Source: a virus (Duplodnaviria > Caudoviricetes). Taken from it: 26,003 bases of DNA. The position numbers and the translations under genes are program-made. How positions within the stretch are numbered: the stretch's first letter is position 1; each line of letters opens with the position of its first letter. The stretch lies in IMG/VR virus record IMGVR_UViG_3300038797_000108, positions 1 to 26,003 of that record. One strand, written 5' to 3'. Below, in pieces: positions 1 through 18,515 of the stretch. A model generated the notes under the pieces. That model had not been told where the DNA came from. It did not search any database and saw only the letters and a list, made by a program, of their open reading frames with translations.

Positions 1-276
1 TCAAGAGGCGCGTTTTAAGCCATTGAGCTGATTGCACTCCTTGACTGCGGCTTCCCGCTGCAAGTCGAGGTAGGCCGCAAGGTCGGTGATGTGGATACCC
101 TTAGCACTTTTCTGGCTGGGCTCCAGACGGGTGATCGGAATTTTGATCTGACCCGCCAGCACCTTGCGCTGGAACATCTCGGTGGTCAGGTGCGTGAAGT
201 AGTCCTTGCACACCTGCTCTAGTGGGATGATTGCCCGGCCATTGTATTGGGCCATCAGGATGAAGGCTGTGTTCAT
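1..276 (-). CDS. Pyocin activator PrtN family protein (91 aa)
   Basis: MNTAFILMAQYNGRAIIPLEQVCKDYFTHLT...IPITRLEPSQKSAKGIHITDLAAYLD resembles PrtN-family sequences. SD GGAG precedes ATG 276; the start overlaps the upstream stop (ATGA). Confidence 0.8.
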   Translation of the reverse strand: MNTAFILMAQYNGRAIIPLEQVCKDYFTHLTTEMFQRKVLAGQIKIPITRLEPSQKSAKGIHITDLAAYLDLQREAAVKECNQLNGLKRAS

Positions 277-443
277 CGTTTGTCTCCTGCGCGCCGGATG
301 ATGCCTTCGGCCTGGCGCTGCTTGCTGCATTTTTCGTGGTTGCCATGTGCCCGCGACCTGTCGCACTTGTCGCAGATGGTTTGTAAATCGAGAGGCGGCA
401 TTTGCCCCGTGCGGATTCGGACCGTTCGGCGAAGGGCTGTCAT
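273..443 (-). CDS. Small putative zinc-binding protein, 56 aa (absent from the ORF track)
   Basis: MTALRRTVRIRTGQMPPLDLQTICDKCDRSRAHGNHEKCSKQRQAEGIIRRAGDKR; CxxC...HxxC motif; ATGA overlaps with both neighbouring genes. Confidence 0.75.
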   Translation of the reverse strand: MTALRRTVRIRTGQMPPLDLQTICDKCDRSRAHGNHEKCSKQRQAEGIIRRAGDKR

Positions 444-2215
444 GCTGCAAGCCTCTGGTACATGCTGATCAGGTCCGCAGCATTCGCTGCGACTAGATCT
501 TCAGCCTCATCTGGACAGACGCTATTACCGATCAGTCGCACCTGGTCCGTTTTGTTGATGTCGCGCCATTCCTCGGCGCCGGTGACAGGGTCAACGAACA
601 GCCCGCGGTCGATGATGTAGTCACGGTCAAAGCCCTGCGCGGCCTTCAGTTCAGGCGGTTGCAGCATGCGCAGGGTGATGTCCACCAGCACGTATCCGCC
701 GACCAACACCATTTCGGCGGGGTCTTTGAAGTGCTCCGGCAGGTACTCGTGCATGAAGGCGGCACAGCGACGGGCGCCTTCCATCTGTTCTGATGTCAGC
801 GAGTTCGGCACCTGCACAACCTCGACCAGCGCAACCCGATCCTTCGTAGGAAGCGTGTGCATTGGCTCGGTGAGCGATATCCCGTCCTTCTCGTTACCGT
901 AGTACTTCACCAAGTAGGCGTTGGCCAGCCGCTGATTGGCGCCGGACTGGCATATGGTTGAAATTGGGTCATAGGCCGATCGGCCTTCGCCTTTGTAGTA
1001 CCCGCCGTTCGCTTGTTCGAAGAATGCGGCCGATACAGCATGGTGTCCGGTGCTGGTGGCGACCACACCGAGGGGGCGGTCGACATCAGCCCCAACCGAA
1101 CCTTTTCGCAGGGTGATCATGTTCGCCGCGGCCAGCGCGAAGTGTCCACCTTTGACCTGGGCGACTTGCGTGCGCAGCGGCTCGACCGCGCTGAAGTTGC
1201 GCTGCGCTGAGCCATTGGCGCACTCGGTGAGAAATGGTGCTGCCACCGGCTTGACCAAGGCGTGATGTGTGCCCCCGGCACTGATGGTCGACAGCGCTTC
1301 GTCCACGCCGTGGGTGCTGGTGTGTGATTCCGAGGTGCCGCGCATTGGAACAATGAACGGCTTCGCGCTGGTCAACACATGGCGCCAGCAGCCTTTGGCC
1401 ACGCGGCGCATGGTGTTCTCTGCCATTGGCTTATCGCGGAATATGGTGCGGCCGAGGTTGCTCCAGTCGATACACTCGGCAGCGGTGCGCCAAGGCAGCT
1501 GTTTGGCGGTCGGCACCTTGTGGCGTTTTGGCGCGGGCCAGACGATCGGTTTGCCGTCGCTGCGCGCCACCAGGTACAGGCGTTTTCGAATGGTAGGGGT
1601 GCCGGCGTTGGCCGCGATCCGTTCGCGCCACTCGACGTTGTAGCCGAGTCCCCGGACAAGATTTTTGACTGGCACGAACTCGCCAATTGACTGGAGTATC
1701 TCCGGCATATCGGGGTGATCGGCTGCCAGCCCGGTGCTGAGCGCGGCAATGAATGATTTGAAGGTGCGCCCGCGCTCCGACTTGATCGGCTGACCATCGT
1801 CGTCGATTGGCCCCCAGTCGCAGAACTCTTCAACGTTCTCGAGGAACATCAAGCGAGGGCGAGTGGCGTGCGCCCAACGCACGACCACCCAAGCCAGACC
1901 GCGTACGCCGCGATCGCGCGGTGCGCCGCCCTTTGCTTTGCTGTGGTGGCGGCAGTCCGGTGAGGCCCAGAGAATGCCAACTGGTTGGCCACCGGTTGCG
2001 CGGATCGGATCTACCTCGAACACGTCGGCAACGTAATGTGCTGTTTCCGGGTGATTGGCGCGATGCACAGCCAGGGCAATTGGGTTGTGGTTCACCGCGA
2101 CATCGGGCTCCCTGTAGGCCCGGGCAATGCCGGTACTCGCGCCACCACCACCAGCGAATAGATCCACCACCAGTTCTTTTTCAAATGGCAATGACAGTGA
2201 TGACATGCAGGTCAT
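440..2215 (-). CDS. DNA (cytosine-5) methyltransferase, orphan phage type
   Basis: Motif I DLFAGGGG, catalytic ASPDC, motif VI LENV, motif VIII TIRKRLYLVA, motif IX LRMLQPPEL..AQGF, motif X IGNSVCP. Confidence 0.93.
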   Translation of the reverse strand: MTCMSSLSLPFEKELVVDLFAGGGGASTGIARAYREPDVAVNHNPIALAVHRANHPETAHYVADVFEVDPIRATGGQPVGILWASPDCRHHSKAKGGAPRDRGVRGLAWVVVRWAHATRPRLMFLENVEEFCDWGPIDDDGQPIKSERGRTFKSFIAALSTGLAADHPDMPEILQSIGEFVPVKNLVRGLGYNVEWRERIAANAGTPTIRKRLYLVARSDGKPIVWPAPKRHKVPTAKQLPWRTAAECIDWSNLGRTIFRDKPMAENTMRRVAKGCWRHVLTSAKPFIVPMRGTSESHTSTHGVDEALSTISAGGTHHALVKPVAAPFLTECANGSAQRNFSAVEPLRTQVAQVKGGHFALAAANMITLRKGSVGADVDRPLGVVATSTGHHAVSAAFFEQANGGYYKGEGRSAYDPISTICQSGANQRLANAYLVKYYGNEKDGISLTEPMHTLPTKDRVALVEVVQVPNSLTSEQMEGARRCAAFMHEYLPEHFKDPAEMVLVGGYVLVDITLRMLQPPELKAAQGFDRDYIIDRGLFVDPVTGAEEWRDINKTDQVRLIGNSVCPDEAEDLVAANAADLISMYQRLAA

Positions 2216-2601
2216 GCTGCGGCTCCTGGCTGGATGGTGTCACTGATGCGGTTGGCCAGTTCGAGGATCTTTTGCGCTTGCTTCTCCGCCTTCAACTGGG
2301 TCGATTCCGTGCCGGGCATTGCTCGCCACGTCAGCTGGGCGAGAGTCAACGTTGCTTGGGCTTGTAGTAGCGTTTGATAGTCGGCCCACGTGAATATCTG
2401 TTCGCTATGTGGAAGGCGGGTCAGGCGAACGATGTCGTTAGTTAGGGCTGCTATGCGTTCCCGGTGATCTTTGAGTTCCGTGGCATGGCGTGCCGCTATG
2501 CGGGCGAAGGCCAGAAGGACTGCTTTGCGGATGAAGTAGGCCATCAGCAGCAGCCCGAGGGCTGAGCCGGCAGCGATGATGATCAGGTGTTGAGTTTGCA
2601 T
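2212..2601 (-). CDS. Hypothetical protein with N-terminal transmembrane helix and coiled coil
   Basis: LIIIAAGSALGLLLMAYFI hydrophobic stretch; SD GAGG; ATGA-coupled to the methyltransferase. Confidence 0.75.
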   Translation of the reverse strand: MQTQHLIIIAAGSALGLLLMAYFIRKAVLLAFARIAARHATELKDHRERIAALTNDIVRLTRLPHSEQIFTWADYQTLLQAQATLTLAQLTWRAMPGTESTQLKAEKQAQKILELANRISDTIQPGAAA

Positions 2602-2674
2602 GTGCTGTGTTCCTCGGTAGAGCCCGCCGCCGGGATTCTTGGTGAGAGGCCGGCGGCGGGTGTTGCAATGGTGG

Positions 2675-3487
2675 TTAGCCCAGGTTGAAGGTGCCGATGG
2701 TCAACTTCGCGGCGCCGCCGACTTCTTGCTGAACGACATCCTTGAACTCTTGGGCGAGGTCTTCGCGCAGTTGTTCTTCGCCAATCCAGCGCAGGACAAG
2801 CAGGGGTTTTTCGCCGCCGGTGAGGACGGCAACACGGAGGCGAATGATCTGGACCGTCAGCCCTTCGTAAGGCTCGACGGTAAACAGGAATTCAGCGGGC
2901 AGGCCTTCCGAAGACTTGGCCTCGATCTGGTCCATCGCCGAACGGGATGCGCTCAGGTCGCCGACGATGTGTTCGCTTTTGCGTGCTTGCTCGATGCTGA
3001 TGGAGCGGATGGCGCTCGCTGCTCTGCGCAAGTCGATGTGGCTGTCATCGGCTGTAAGGGCTTGGAGGTTCGACGACCAATCTTCAATCCAATCGCTCAG
3101 TTCTTTCTGTGCGAATTTGATGGAGGCGGCCCGCTCCAGCGCCCGGAAGGCCGCGGTCTTTCTCAGGTTGAGGGTGGCGGTGAAGTCGCCATGCCCTGGT
3201 GCTTTGGTGTCGCCCAAGTTGAAAATCACGGTGCAGGACATGGCTTCTGCGTCGACAAAGCCAGAGGCAACGACATCGGTGCTTTGTTCCATCACGTAGT
3301 TGCCGAAGTCGAGCAGTGAGTGTGTGGTGAGCGCGCCACGGAAGCGGCTGCGTGCAGCCTGGAATTTCTCGATGCTGTGGATCTTCTGATCCGACGGCAG
3401 TACCAATGTCGGGGTGAACGTGCCCAGCGGCTTGGCATAGGCCAGAACGGCAGTGTCTTGAATCAACTGAATTGCTTTGGCTTCCAT
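2675..3487 (-). CDS. YfdQ/DUF2303 family phage protein
   Basis: 270 aa with RSRFRG..TTHSL.DF, FNLG....PGHGD, QKELSDWIEDW and PYEGL signatures. Confidence 0.85.
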   Translation of the reverse strand: MEAKAIQLIQDTAVLAYAKPLGTFTPTLVLPSDQKIHSIEKFQAARSRFRGALTTHSLLDFGNYVMEQSTDVVASGFVDAEAMSCTVIFNLGDTKAPGHGDFTATLNLRKTAAFRALERAASIKFAQKELSDWIEDWSSNLQALTADDSHIDLRRAASAIRSISIEQARKSEHIVGDLSASRSAMDQIEAKSSEGLPAEFLFTVEPYEGLTVQIIRLRVAVLTGGEKPLLVLRWIGEEQLREDLAQEFKDVVQQEVGGAAKLTIGTFNLG

Positions 3488-3529
3488 TGGATCTATTTCC
3501 TTTTGGCGAGAGATATGGAGCGGGTTGGT

Positions 3530-3880
3530 TTAGGACTTGGCGTGAACCGGTGCTTCGTCGCGGTTGAACAGCTGGCCGGCGCGAGGTGCCTCGGCAAACA
3601 GCGTCAGGCGTCCGCCCTCGTTGACGTGCATCGGCGTGTCGAGCGTGGTGTCTTCGCTGCGGCTGCCACGTTTCGTTGGCACTTTGTAGGCGAGCTTGTG
3701 GTTGACGGTGACCTGGTGGCTATCGGCGATCTGCTTCAAGGTGAAGGTCAGCGTGACGGAGCCGACCTTGCCGTTATCGACAACGCCCGATGCCACTTCG
3801 GAAAGTGCATGACCGATCTGATTTGCGAATACGCCGGCGTTCAGTTCGCCGATGAATTCGGCTGTGTCGGTAGGTTTCAT
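3530..3880 (-). CDS. YfdP-like phage protein (usual partner of DUF2303)
   Basis: TDTAEFIGELNAGVF...HKLAYKVPTKRG.RSEDTT.DTPMHVNEGGRL; lies immediately upstream of DUF2303. Confidence 0.75.
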   Translation of the reverse strand: MKPTDTAEFIGELNAGVFANQIGHALSEVASGVVDNGKVGSVTLTFTLKQIADSHQVTVNHKLAYKVPTKRGSRSEDTTLDTPMHVNEGGRLTLFAEAPRAGQLFNRDEAPVHAKS

Positions 3881-3937
3881 GTGCTGTGCCTCGTTGTGCG
3901 AGTTGTTTGCCCCTGGGCGGCAGGGGCTACCGTTGAA

Positions 3938-4180
3938 TCAAGCCGCTGCCTTCGTCGCTTGGGCGTCGAGGAATTCAGCCAGGTTGTGCAGGTACACCAC
4001 CGGCTTTGCTCGTGCCGAGCAATGCAGGCGCGTTACGACCAGGGCGATACGGCCTGCCTTGATCTCGGCCAGCAGGTAGCGGTCGGTGCGGATGTGTGCG
4101 AAGTACTGTTCACGTACTGCCGACAAGGTCGGGCAGGGCGTGGCGAACTGTTTGCGTAGTTGATCGAGGGTGTCGCTCAC
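3938..4180 (-). CDS. Second PrtN-family protein (80 aa)
   Basis: TLDQLRKQFATPCPTLSAVREQYFAHI...IKAGRIALVVTRL..SARAKPVVYLHNLAEFLD aligns by eye with the PrtN at 1-276. Confidence 0.75.
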   Translation of the reverse strand: MSDTLDQLRKQFATPCPTLSAVREQYFAHIRTDRYLLAEIKAGRIALVVTRLHCSARAKPVVYLHNLAEFLDAQATKAAA

Positions 4181-4560
4181 GCGGCATCCTCCCCGAACCC
4201 CTCCGATGGGGGCACCAGCTTGAGGCCGATCAATTCGGCGAGGCCTTCTTTGCTCTTGCCTATGCCGGCGGCGCAGATGTGGCCAGCGGCGTCTGCGACT
4301 ACGGCGCCGAAGGGGTATTCGGGCGAGTTAGTCGGGGTGACGTAGGCGGTTTGGCCTTCGTGGATCACGTTGTTGACGCAACGGAACACTTCGGCCAGTT
4401 CGGTGCTGAGCGCTGGCATGCTTTCCAACAACTGGATCGCTTCGGTCGAGGCGCCCAGCATCGTGGCTCGGCTGATCACGCCCGGGCACGTCAGGTAGAT
4501 CGGGATCAGCTTCAGGGCGCCGAGCGCTTGGGTGTAGGCGTTGAGTTGATTAGTTTTCAT
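4177..4560 (-). CDS. Hypothetical protein (127 aa, MKTNQLN...)
   Basis: ATG 4560 overlaps the stop of the upstream gene, with SD AAGGA; its stop overlaps the start of the next gene. Confidence 0.7.
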   Translation of the reverse strand: MKTNQLNAYTQALGALKLIPIYLTCPGVISRATMLGASTEAIQLLESMPALSTELAEVFRCVNNVIHEGQTAYVTPTNSPEYPFGAVVADAAGHICAAGIGKSKEGLAELIGLKLVPPSEGFGEDAA

Positions 4561-4832
4561 GCGGCGGCGTCCTTTCTGGTGATGGTGATTCCAAGCTTCT
4601 TGGCCAACCAATCCACGCCGCCTTCTTTCACCATCACCACGGAGTAGTGACGGCATTTGTTGAGCGACGGGATCAAGGTGCTGCGCGGGTCCGAGTACAG
4701 GTGCCCACGGTCTCTGTACTGGCTGGCAAGGTCACCACTGCTATTCAAAATGCCCAGTTCCCGCAGCCTTGTGCGGAATGCGCGGGGCTTGAGGCCGAGC
4801 ACTGCGGCCGTTTCGGCCAAGGTGCGGTTCAT
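4557..4832 (-). CDS. Phage antirepressor KilAC/ANT-like domain protein (91 aa)
   Basis: TLAETAAVLGLKPRAF...L..LGIL...ASQYRDRG.L...VMVKEGGVDWLAKKL pattern; SD GAGG before ATG 4832. Confidence 0.65.
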   Translation of the reverse strand: MNRTLAETAAVLGLKPRAFRTRLRELGILNSSGDLASQYRDRGHLYSDPRSTLIPSLNKCRHYSVVMVKEGGVDWLAKKLGITITRKDAAA

Positions 4833-4842
4833 GGCGCTGGCC

Positions 4843-5214
4843 TCAGGCGGCAATCAGTTTGCGGACGCGGTCAAGCAAGGCTTCCGAGTCCGCCAGCGCT
4901 TGATCGATTTGCGCCAAGCGGCCTATCTGCCCGGGTGGCGCGGGTTGCGCAGACTCGATTCGGCCGTTCGCAATGTCCTGAATGAACTCCCGCAGGTGTA
5001 GGTGGTTGGCCCGGTCCGCACGCCTGAGGGTCAATTCACCGGTAAGGCCGCCCAGGTCAACATTGACGACTGCGGTGGTATCGGTGAGCTCGATCTCAAA
5101 GCGTGCATGGACTGTTTGCTCTGGGCGTTGGAGAGGGCACACGGCTGCGCCACCGACTTGCAGCATGTGGTGCAACAGCTCTTGTTTTGCGAGCGGGATT
5201 AGATAGCTATTCAT
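4843..5214 (-). CDS. Hypothetical protein (123 aa)
   Basis: In operon; ATGA-coupled to the upstream ORF. Confidence 0.7.
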   Translation of the reverse strand: MNSYLIPLAKQELLHHMLQVGGAAVCPLQRPEQTVHARFEIELTDTTAVVNVDLGGLTGELTLRRADRANHLHLREFIQDIANGRIESAQPAPPGQIGRLAQIDQALADSEALLDRVRKLIAA

Positions 5215-5411
5215 GCTGCGTCGCCCCCGTAAGGCCGCGAGCTATCGGCGGCGGTGCTGGTGGACTCGATAGCCGCGGTGCGACCTTTGGGTGTGGTGAT
5301 CACGAGCAGCCCGGTACGGCGCTGGATGGCTTCGACTGCTGCCCGGCTGCTGCATGCAGAGGGGTGCAGGTAGACCGGGCAGCGTGTGTTGCTGTGCTGT
5401 GTGGTTTGCAT
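5211..5411 (-). CDS. First gene of the pL operon, hypothetical 66 aa (MQTTQHSNTRCPVYLHP...)
   Basis: ATG at 5411 is the first start downstream of predicted pL; ATGA overlap with the next gene. Confidence 0.7.
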   Translation of the reverse strand: MQTTQHSNTRCPVYLHPSACSSRAAVEAIQRRTGLLVITTPKGRTAAIESTSTAADSSRPYGGDAA

Positions 5412-5448
5412 GGCTCGTACTCTTTGGTGAGAGGTAGATACGAGTGCA

Positions 5449-5477
5449 AAATTAGTATCACTGATTAAATAAGTCAA
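5449..5477 (-). promoter_or_regulatory. pL-like sigma70 promoter
   Basis: Minus strand TTGACT-17 bp-TAATTT, overlapped by operator-like palindromes. Confidence 0.75.
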
Positions 5478-5557: not shown

Positions 5558-6355
5558 TCAGAGCATCACGGAATACCAGAATACCTTCCCGATGACGCGT
5601 ATGTGTTGCTGAACGTAGTCTCCTTCATAGCGCTCGTCTGGGTGCTCTTCAGTGTTATAGCTTCGAAGACGCAGCCCGGAACCAGGTAGTCGGTAAAGAA
5701 GCTTCACGCGGAGCTGTCCGTCATGATCAATTGCGTACATCTTTCCGTCTTGAATGGTTGTGTTCGCAGTGTCTACGCCAACGGTGCTGCCGTCCGGAAG
5801 TACGGGTTCCATACTGTTGCCAGTGACTGGTACGCATCCTGCAGCCGCGGGATCAATGCTCTTTCTCTTCAGCGTTCGCTTGCCGAAACGCAATTTTCGG
5901 CCGTTTGTTTCAAGCATCACCTCAGAGCCCTTACCTGCCGACAATTCTACTTCCTTAAAGAATGGCAGCTCGACTTCATCAGGTCCGAGCGGGGTGTCAT
6001 CGTCCCAAACCTCGATTGGGTGCATTTCCCAATCGGTGCTTCTGGTTTTTTCTGAGGCTCCCTCCGACTGCCTCAAGCGAGGCATTTCTGCAAGCCCGGC
6101 TAGGCGCGGGCTGACCTCGTCGAGCGAAAAGCCCAGCACGTTGGCAAATTTGATGAGCGCTCCGATGTTCAGTGGGATGCGGCCATTCAAGTACTGACTC
6201 ACAACGCTCTGGCCAGACCACTCGCAGAGATCGGCGATTTTGTCTTGCGTCAGGGATGGGTCTTTCCGCTTGCGATCCTGATAAATAGCCTTCAAGCGCA
6301 TGGCTTCGGCTTTTCGGGTCTCGTCATCGGCAATAAGTGGGATTGAGATAATCAT
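5558..6355 (-). CDS. cI: CI-type phage repressor (HTH + S24 autopeptidase), PrtR/LexA-like
   Basis: HTH LTQDKIADLCEWSGQSVVSQYLNG; cleavage site LSAG; catalytic GNSMEP and RVKLL; C-terminal VIGKVFW; divergent from cro. Confidence 0.93.
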   Translation of the reverse strand: MIISIPLIADDETRKAEAMRLKAIYQDRKRKDPSLTQDKIADLCEWSGQSVVSQYLNGRIPLNIGALIKFANVLGFSLDEVSPRLAGLAEMPRLRQSEGASEKTRSTDWEMHPIEVWDDDTPLGPDEVELPFFKEVELSAGKGSEVMLETNGRKLRFGKRTLKRKSIDPAAAGCVPVTGNSMEPVLPDGSTVGVDTANTTIQDGKMYAIDHDGQLRVKLLYRLPGSGLRLRSYNTEEHPDERYEGDYVQQHIRVIGKVFWYSVML

Positions 6356-6473: not shown

Positions 6474-6683
6474 ATGGCTAACGAAATAGGTATCCCTCTG
6501 GAGGAATTTGCAGAGGGAAAGACTCAACCAGAGCTGGCTTTACTCATTGGGGTTTCGCAAAGCGCTGTGTCTCAAATGCTCAACTCGGCTCGGGATATTC
6601 GTGTGCGGGTTGATGAGAAAGGGGCATGTTCTGCGGTAGAGATTCGTCCAATCGGATCGCGCCGCAAGCCCAAAGCTGCTTAA
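6474..6683 (+). CDS. cro: Cro-like repressor
   Basis: 69 aa HTH (TQPELALLIGVSQSAVSQML) with lambda-Cro-like C-terminal strands (RDIRVRVDEKGACSAVEIRP); divergent from cI. Confidence 0.88.
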   Translation: MANEIGIPLEEFAEGKTQPELALLIGVSQSAVSQMLNSARDIRVRVDEKGACSAVEIRPIGSRRKPKAA

Positions 6684-6763
6684 AAAGGTGCCGAGCTGGG
6701 GCCTCTCACCAAAGAATCCCCCAGCCCAGCTACGACGACACACAGCACATGCACATCGGTCGT
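6682..6763 (-). ncRNA. Predicted ~82-nt two-hairpin antisense/trans-acting small RNA
   Basis: Upstream promoter TAGCCA-17-TATCCT; two stem-loops; 3' stem pairs with G-U only on this strand; ends CACCUUUUU; loops complementary to four sites in the left operon. Confidence 0.65.
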
Positions 6764-6769
6764 GGTCAT

Positions 6770-6798
6770 AGGATAGGGTTTGCCCTGGCCTATGGCTA
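6770..6798 (-). promoter_or_regulatory. Leftward sigma70-like promoter for the predicted sRNA (pRE-like position)
   Basis: -35 TAGCCA (6798-6793), 17-bp spacer, -10 TATCCT (6775-6770); predicted +1 is A at 6763, the first base of hairpin 1. Confidence 0.55.
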
Positions 6799-6823
6799 CA
6801 CCGTAAACAGGGGATTTACGGTT

Positions 6824-7312
6824 ATGAGTCGCACAGATCTTTTGCCGGACGCTGGTCCGGTCCTACCGCTACGCCAGGCGATCTATCGCGCTGGTCGAGA
6901 CTATAAGGGCGGAATCACCGCCCTTGCCTTTGACATGGTGTTGGAGAACGACACCCTCCAGAAGAAACTCAAGCTCGATGAAGAACGTCGCTGGCTGAAT
7001 CCTGATGAGCTTGAAGAGCTGATCCGGCTGACTGGCGACTCGCGCTTGCTTGATGCGCTGATGCGGCCTGCAGGTGCGGTCTGGTATCGCCCGGTACCGG
7101 TACCGGCGACACGAGATGCTTTGAAAGCTGTCGGCAAGTTGCTCGGAGAGACAGGTGAGTTTGTCGCCGCGATGCACGATGGCGCTGCCGACAATGTCTG
7201 GGAGCTTCACGAAGTTCTCGACCTTGAAAAGCAGGGCATGGACGTAATCCGCGAAGTCCTCGGCATCATGGCGGGTGCACGCCAAGCGATGGAGGATCGC
7301 GACAATGGCTGA
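6824..7312 (+). CDS. Phage regulatory CII-family protein (162 aa)
   Basis: Lies after cro; YKGGITALA...TLQKKL......L...EL..LIRLTGD.RLLDAL pattern; SD AGGGGA. An in-frame upstream ATG at 6749 lacks an SD. Confidence 0.7.
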   Translation: MSRTDLLPDAGPVLPLRQAIYRAGRDYKGGITALAFDMVLENDTLQKKLKLDEERRWLNPDELEELIRLTGDSRLLDALMRPAGAVWYRPVPVPATRDALKAVGKLLGETGEFVAAMHDGAADNVWELHEVLDLEKQGMDVIREVLGIMAGARQAMEDRDNG

Positions 7313-11018: not shown

Positions 11019-11145
11019 CCGAAAATGGCCTCTTTTCGGTTCCGTACTGAGGGGGTAAAAAGTCCCCACGATATGGAATTTGCGCCTTGGCGCTGACCTC
11101 GCACGTGCTGTGCAGCTTTACCCGGCCCACCCTGAGCCGGTCACC

Positions 11146-11172
11146 AACCCCGCTTCGGCGGGGTTTTCTTTT
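11146..11172 (+). terminator. tR'-like intrinsic terminator before the holin
   Basis: AACCCCGC-TTCG-GCGGGGTT followed by TTCTTTT. Confidence 0.88.
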
Positions 11173-18131: not shown

Positions 18132-18182
18132 TCCCCCGGCCCTGCCTACCGGCGGGGCCAACTATCTTGAGTGGGTAGCAAA

Positions 18183-18515
18183 ATGAGCGATAAGAAAATC
18201 GTCACCTTCAAAAAGGAATGGCGCGGCTACGCCATTGGGGAAACAGCAGGCTTCGATATTGAGGCTGCCAATGCGCTGATCGAGTCGGGTCGGGCCCGGC
18301 CGTATGTAGCATCAGCGGTCGTTGAGAAATCCCAAGTAGCGTCCGGCGGGAAAAAAACGACAGCGAAGAGAGCCGGCAAGTCGACCGACCCAGTCGACCC
18401 AGTCGACCCAGTTGATCCAGTTGATCCGGTGGACCCAGTGGACCCAGTTGATCCGGTTGATCCGGTTGATCCGGTCGACCCAGTTGATCCAGTTGAACTG
18501 GATGAGAAGCCATAA
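18183..18515 (+). CDS. Small post-capsid protein with a (DPV)12 tail
   Basis: V.F.K.WRGY..GE.AGF....A..LI..G.A N-terminal domain, Lys-rich linker, then DPV repeats. Confidence 0.75.
   Translation: MSDKKIVTFKKEWRGYAIGETAGFDIEAANALIESGRARPYVASAVVEKSQVASGGKKTTAKRAGKSTDPVDPVDPVDPVDPVDPVDPVDPVDPVDPVDPVDPVELDEKP
18387..18494 (+). repeat. 12 x 9-bp coding tandem repeat GAYCCRGTN
   Basis: 108 bp; all variation falls at third codon positions. Confidence 0.95.

Follow-up and report, generated by a model that had tools for sequence, protein, structure and literature searches.

Textbook accounts present the lambdoid switch as a circuit of proteins, and the antisense RNAs lambda OOP, aQ and P22 sar each overlap a single target on the opposite strand. 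The C4 RNA of P1 and P7 is encoded within, and cut from, the operon that it controls.

In the portions of the published work available to us, OOP, aQ and sar are described as small antisense RNAs with which phages adjust the choice between lysis and lysogeny (PMC12197685), and the C4 RNA (RF01695; c4-a1b1 target motif of Weinberg 2010) as a short structured phage RNA with loop segments that pair near a ribosome-binding site. C4 RNA blocks antirepressor synthesis and gives specificity classes (PMC12197685); it is processed and serves as a substrate of RNase P (PMC5499578; PMC8546580), and according to the available part of one of these articles bacterial RNase P cleaves hairpin substrates, among them C4 and CI RNAs (PMC5499578). 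In phage P4 (CI RNA, seqA/seqC) and in Gifsy-1 (IsrK/STnc1160), a processed RNA pairs at two sites of an early transcript, as far as the accessible text covers these systems (PMC4825925). For phage 186, the accessible text places the inverted repeat bound by CII at pE, the establishment promoter of cI, with its half-sites at -38 and -58 (PMC6593788).

The window, i.e. the whole stretch of 26,003 nucleotides analysed here, represents a temperate Pseudomonas-type phage with genes for a cI-like repressor, cro, CII, primase, terminase and a contractile tail; no tRNA or tmRNA was found in it. The switch region contains the following features.

5558..6355, minus strand: cI-like repressor gene
6390-6363, minus strand: candidate pRM of cI, TTGAAA-16-TAAATT
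6474..6683, plus strand: cro, with a Pfam Cro match above cut-off
6682..6763, minus strand: small RNA predicted here, or the 5' end of a cI transcript of the pE type; +1 at 6763, 3' end uncertain
6770..6798, minus strand: putative promoter of sigma70 type, TAGCCA-17-TATCCT, placed like lambda pRE and 186 pE
6800..6822, either strand: palindrome ACCGTAAA-N7-TTTACGGT, centred at -48; candidate CII site
6824..7312, plus strand: CII gene of the phage-186 (CP76) family (PF06892, 58 bits versus a cut-off of 26; phrog_101)

The leftward early operon is ordered ORF1 (5411), a KilAC-like gene (Pfam match below cut-off), a PrtN/excisionase-like gene, a YfdP-like gene, DUF2303, the 2601 gene and a cytosine methylase gene. 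Several of these genes overlap from stop to start, and the stop of ORF 2601-2212 overlaps the methylase start. Three members are referred to repeatedly.

5411-5211, minus strand: ORF1, phrog_13491, no function assigned
3880-3530, minus strand: YfdP-like gene, phrog_204
start at 3487, minus strand: DUF2303/YfdQ gene

The cro-cII spacer probably encodes a leftward antisense RNA that would block translation of the leftward operon and thereby favour lysogeny. The predicted RNA has in common with C4 that it is short and structured, and that two loop segments are complementary to bipartite a/b sites at translation starts. It differs from C4 in that it consists of two or three separate hairpins, fails the C4 covariance models, has its own conserved promoter and lies in another transcription unit, 1.3-4.1 kb upstream of its targets, with cI and the predicted pL in between; moreover, four start regions are targeted instead of one operon head. 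Complementarity to paired sites of an early transcript is reminiscent of P4 CI and IsrK. The CI RNA, however, lies between its targets on the same transcript and causes termination, whereas the spacer RNA lies outside the pL transcript and its boxes are located at start codons, in trans and behind another predicted promoter. A role in the lysis-lysogeny choice would be shared with OOP, aQ and sar, unlike which the spacer RNA has short loop seeds that match several distant start regions. Judged from sequence, it is likely a C4/CI-like antisense repressor outside the C4 family, and there is a good chance that it works like P1/P7 C4 and P4 CI while lacking some of the features that define membership in either.

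The original prediction did not assign the RNA to any described family, and this assessment held: an Rfam search of the window to E ≤ 1, with the C4 models included, gave no relevant match but only chance matches (SECIS_4, sR3), and none at gathering score was obtained in seven related loci. The listings and abstract openings of the open-access literature yielded no description of the spacer RNA, and a trans-acting RNA derived from a pE or pRE leader was not found in the open-access literature searched. The terms small RNA, non-coding and antisense do not occur in the accessible portion of the paper on Lodos and Turba (PMC11846083), and the portions of the Weinberg 2010 supplements that were examined contain no described motif with these loops. 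In the available part of supplement file 4 of PMC2864571, a C4-looking row shows the letters of the a box in the flank downstream, a short distance ahead of an AUG; this may be chance or a seed shared with C4 RNAs.

Predicted leftward promoter and candidate CII site

A minus-strand promoter with +1 at about 6763 had been proposed, and its parts are as described: a -35 hexamer TAGCCA (6798-6793), a spacing of 17 bp, a -10 hexamer TATCCT (6775-6770) and +1 at 6763. Since a scan for consensus sites recognised neither the promoter (8 of 12) nor an intrinsic terminator at the U5 tail, relatives were compared instead. They comprised 66 genome loci, 80 viral loci and named phages, to which 16 pattern-found loci and 77 loci found via distant CII proteins were added later. 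For the promoter comparison, 151 loci minus five that were dropped (three without anchor, two too short) gave 109 distinct spacers. Both hexamers were kept at 17-bp spacing in 108 of the 109. Among these, the -10 element was TATCCT (99), TACTCT (6) or TATTCT (3), with the general form TA...T, and the -35 element was near TAGCCA, while conservation in the middle of the spacer dropped to 0.2 bits. Conserved hexamers around a variable mid-spacer are the pattern of a putative leftward promoter under selection.

The adjacent palindrome brackets the Shine-Dalgarno (SD) sequence of cII on the plus strand, and 319 of 328 positions were complementary across 41 variants. It differs by CII clade, with an own version in 31/32 pAN-like and 13/13 Halomonas-like loci. 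In locus L058, a degenerate palindrome stays with the promoter at a distance of 179 nt from the cII start owing to an insertion. The spacer of this locus is duplicated (L058:8560-9005): a promoter-less hairpin copy lies beside cII, and the full copy with promoter, degenerate palindrome and several loops is found farther left. The mispairs within the palindrome favour an RNA hairpin on the cII mRNA (six G·U, no A·C), five of them coming from a single variant.

Like 186 pE and lambda pRE, the promoter points leftward and is convergent with pR, and next to it lie a gene for a 186-family CII and an inverted repeat with its centre at -48. It differs from 186 pE in that the half-site centres are 15 bp apart in the main clade instead of 20, conservation of the -35 hexamer is strong and cI has a pRM candidate of its own. 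Because the palindrome occupies the position of the 186 CII site and changes with the CII clade, the leftward promoter is probably pE-like; the chance that CII controls it is about even. Given the position of an establishment promoter and the CII-type palindrome, the RNA may be the 5' end of the cI transcript and not a free-standing, terminated 82-mer. Gating of the pR operon by the same RNA, also proposed at the outset, would follow from geometry alone; the RNA at 6682..6763 does not overlap the cII start. An N-terminally extended CII starting from the b-box ATG was considered and discarded, as this upstream in-frame start was open in just 59 of 116 spacers.

Hairpins, ends and possible transcripts of the predicted spacer RNA

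Two hairpins make up the predicted RNA.

6732..6763, minus strand: hairpin b', which displays GUGCUGUG; its CAU is complementary to AUG
6687..6730, minus strand: hairpin a', with a 12-bp stem, the loop core GGUGAGAG and a G-C end pair followed by ACC

The two-hairpin fold was reproduced as claimed, with -38.4 kcal/mol (z -3.5) for the leftward strand of the 82-nt sequence versus -24.2 kcal/mol (z -2.2) for the rightward strand. The leftward strand also folded better in 59/59 relatives compared, a result given little weight because this strand is G/U-rich. The a' stem had further been said to form G·U pairs on the leftward strand where the plus strand would have A·C. In agreement, the non-Watson-Crick pairs of 32 distinct type-1 a' stems were 32 G·U versus 4 A·C on the leftward strand, and most columns showed two-sided changes. 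Type-2 a' stems had no strand bias (3 versus 5 in 10 stems), and 18 RNAs remained unparsed in this test. In an automatic test of 16 hairpin b' helices, 17 G·U versus no A·C pairs were counted on the leftward strand.

The predicted U5 tail is present in the window, where it shares two bases with the cro stop codon, but its conservation is poor: at least four U were found in just 30 of the 61 type-1 relatives that could be parsed, and RNAs of the P. aeruginosa type have no U tail. An intrinsic terminator at this position was rejected, as the scanner calls none and conservation is poor, and owing to the weak conservation of the tail the 3' end of an 82-nt RNA is tentative. The G-C closing pair plus ACC after the 12-bp a' stem occurred in 65 of 85 type-1 RNAs, a count that excludes the type-2 RNAs, which have no such acceptor-like end. 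The end of the a' stem resembles a tRNA acceptor and is a possible RNase P substrate. The number of hairpins varies: RNAs of the P. aeruginosa/otitidis type (L001, L052, L057, L060, L067, L151-L166) carry two a' hairpins in tandem with identical loops, and those of pAN and PG1 contain a third hairpin, the loop of which matches the internal a2 site in PG1.

A P. aeruginosa-type copy of the locus was present in 14 RNA runs from six studies. In one of four runs examined, a contig (depth 31.6) extended from the exact predicted +1 to 5 nt past the cI stop, and a cII-side contig (depth 9) of the same run did not join it; in the other three runs, contigs crossed +1 unbroken. As the contigs are unstranded and the +1 contig comes from one study, it is taken as a lead, not as proof; such contigs define neither start nor level, and DNA carry-over is possible. 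Four raw-read runs (2026) contained no phage sequence and hence provided no test of the transcript.

Target boxes and their co-variation with the loops

Sequences complementary to the loops are located in the leftward operon.

5421..5434, minus strand: box a1, 14 nt, in the loop of the pL leader hairpin
5393..5403, minus strand: box b1, 11 nt, ORF1 codons 3-7
3878..3888, minus strand: box b, 11 nt, between SD and AUG of the YfdP-like gene
3502..3512, minus strand: box a, with one G·U and read by eye, upstream of the DUF2303/YfdQ start at 3487
2597..2651, minus strand: bipartite target of ORF 2601-2212, with a2 at 2632-2651 (9+13 nt around a 1-nt bulge, in a hairpin loop) and b2 at 2597-2610 (14 nt, SD to AUG)

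The claimed complementarity of the loops to start regions of the opposite operon was borne out by five exact matches of at least 11 nt on the leftward mRNA (1-5460), all of them at start regions. In a shuffle control the mean was 0.16 and none of 2000 shuffles reached five; the other three compartments gave 0, 2 and 1 such matches. Each loop motif alone, with mismatches allowed, was not enriched in the window. By duplex energy the bipartite sites ranked first and second of 34 start regions, with 5/34 control starts misplaced; this ranking was obtained by co-folding, and loop-loop pairing is outside its model. The 3502-3512 box, perfect in many relatives, showed the weakest predicted binding of the four sites in the window.

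Silencing had been proposed for an antirepressor/PrtN/methyltransferase operon. The boxes do lie in this operon, at the starts of ORF1, the YfdP-like gene, DUF2303/YfdQ and the 2601 gene, but none was found at the KilAC-like gene (without a box also in the start-region binding comparison), PrtN or the methylase; these three genes could be reached only via translational coupling or polarity. The 3' arm of the pL leader hairpin holds the ribosome-binding site of ORF1. An automatic test of this hairpin on the mRNA strand gave 33 A·C versus 15 G·U, a lean opposite to that expected of an mRNA hairpin, which may stem from loop positions having been counted. The three Pseudomonas box classes CUCA, CUGA and CUUA (5427-5434, 2639-2649) vary at the free position of the YUNR U-turn, a motif typical of recognition loops in antisense RNAs; YUNR is matched neither by the CCUCUAC class nor by the Halomonas boxes.

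Alignment of relatives had been suggested as a check for co-variation of loops and targets, and several classes did co-vary, out to Halomonas phages. Among 86 loci, the left arm contained the a core 167 times on its pairing strand versus 8, 6 and 3 times in the control compartments, and the b core 207 times versus 5, 82 and 3; the 82 control matches represent one late-leader motif. Among 123 distinct loci, a cognate box was present in 93/108 with loop GTGAGAG, 8/8 with GTCAGAG, 2/2 with GTAGAGG and 1/1 with GTAAGAG, and cross-class sites amounted to one in total; 15/108 main-class and 2/4 'other' loci lacked a cognate a box in the vicinity of a b box. Retrieval of the variant loci relied on spacer patterns and made no use of the targets; being related, however, these loci represent a handful of events, so that locus counts overstate the number of independent events. 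The flank tracks too: TTT in the RNA went with AA in the target at 155/176 sites, and TGT with AC at 30/37.

Distant phages provide the stronger evidence. In pAN and PG1, new a' loops occur with matching boxes, and the layout is kept. The wholly different loops of Halomonas H4907, in which the layout is likewise kept, match the pL leader, the ORF1 start and the DUF2303 start of this phage by 13-14 nt. For 26 distinct spacers, drawn from 30 of 44 Halomonas-like and pAN-like loci with one locus lacking a match, 70 matches of at least 11 nt were found on the pairing strand versus 3, 7 and 4. Single-base changes in the Halomonas b' loop are mirrored in the targets, and matches of 11-16 nt change letter for letter in Halomonas phages, even inside coding sequence. 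The last spacer hairpin of Halomonas-type loci (L168-L174, L177) is followed by a U run, and its loop matches a site upstream of DUF2303 by 12-13 nt in five of the distinct spacers examined. The breadth of the family seen comprises phages of Pseudomonadaceae and Halomonas.

Taken by itself, the co-variation is also compatible with copies in the same sense that are recognised by a protein. Lambda nutR sits just after cro. The boxes could be nut/put-like sense-strand signals that occur in both early transcripts, pL and pR, and act on a protein or on RNA polymerase, with the leftward fold being incidental. The pR transcript has the same hairpin-plus-box layout just past cro, and pL has it just past its promoter; the specificity classes could reflect a partner protein, the late-leader GUGCU hairpin does not track the boxes, and the loop-target mismatches comprise five G·U-compatible changes, three other transitions and nine transversions. 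We nevertheless regard this explanation as improbable, because the spacer stem takes G·U on the leftward and not on the pR strand: read on the latter, the type-1 a' stems give 32 A·C versus 4 G·U, which is not the picture of a structure selected there. Further points against it are the conserved leftward promoter directed into the spacer hairpins, the SD/AUG positions of the boxes, the letter-for-letter changes in the Halomonas phages and the fact that no N-like protein was identified among the annotated genes of the window.

The RNA could also pair with the boxes but activate, by opening the hairpin that hides the ribosome-binding site of ORF1. The 3' arm of the pL leader hairpin holds the SD sequence in predicted folds, and IsrK, in the part of the report available, sets a precedent with orf45-anrP (PMC4825925). 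Activation of this kind appears unlikely, since loop b' is complementary to the SD-AUG spacer plus AUG at 2601 and 3880 and to ORF1 codons 3-7, and both the promoter position and the CII-type palindrome point to a role that promotes lysogeny. Similarly slim is the chance that the promoter is simply the cI establishment promoter and the hairpins a stabilising 5' leader whose main action is in cis, directed against the pR/cro transcript, the trans boxes being of secondary importance: the promoter position, the CP76-type CII, the weak U tail and the one contig spanning +1 to the cI end would fit, but a cis role needs no loop conservation and does not account for the joint change of loops and distant boxes in all clades examined.

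Proposed mechanism and significance

For the preferred reading, an antisense RNA that represses the leftward operon in trans, we propose the following course of events on the basis of the promoter-like site, the hairpins, the a' strand bias, the box positions and the loop-box co-variation observed. Transcription would start from +1 at 6763, and CII sitting on the neighbouring palindrome would probably increase it, as happens at 186 pE; CI (by read-through) and the RNA would then both come from a single promoter. The short form may be generated at the 12-bp stem plus ACC by RNase P-like processing and not by intrinsic termination. The first contact would be between loop a' and the CUCUCACC loop exposed by the target hairpin, after which loop b' would mask the stretch between SD and AUG or the first codons. 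The genes coupled downstream (KilAC-like, PrtN/xis-like, methylase) would be silenced via lost coupling and polarity. In lytic growth, the complementary pR transcript would titrate the RNA.

A more far-reaching version is possible but doubtful: that in a widespread group of temperate Pseudomonas, Stutzerimonas and Halomonas phages a CII-driven transcript supplies CI and is cut by RNase P, in the manner of a tRNA precursor, into modular guide hairpins that silence several start codons of the leftward early operon, the loops forming an RNA immunity code beside and independent of CI.

If the repressor reading is true, an RNA brake is added to the lysis-lysogeny switch, CII gains a second, post-transcriptional output in silencing the leftward early operon, and a few bases in the loops could define superinfection-immunity groups. 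Members of the family are found in P. aeruginosa prophages that are inducible (Lodos, Turba) and in many environmental pseudomonads. Because the natural loop classes supply allele-specific pairs, the idea is cheap to test, and these classes could yield orthogonal riboregulators for pseudomonads.

Two minor observations concern the region to the right of the RNA. A late leader (11067-11172, plus strand) before the gene in the holin position contains a small hairpin (11101-11113) that shares GUGCUGUG with loop b' and precedes a strong intrinsic terminator. On the plus strand, this motif was found 3-7.5 kb to the right of the RNA in 127/139 loci, a few of these occurrences lying outside the leader (e.g. 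in terL), and in 90 of 105 distinct anchored leaders. The late-leader hairpin could be a second RNA acting against the b boxes; as a co-evolving second guide it was rejected, because it does not follow the variant boxes of L042 and L044 and is absent in L066. Finally, an ORF in the head region (18171-18515) contains a long DPV tripeptide repeat.
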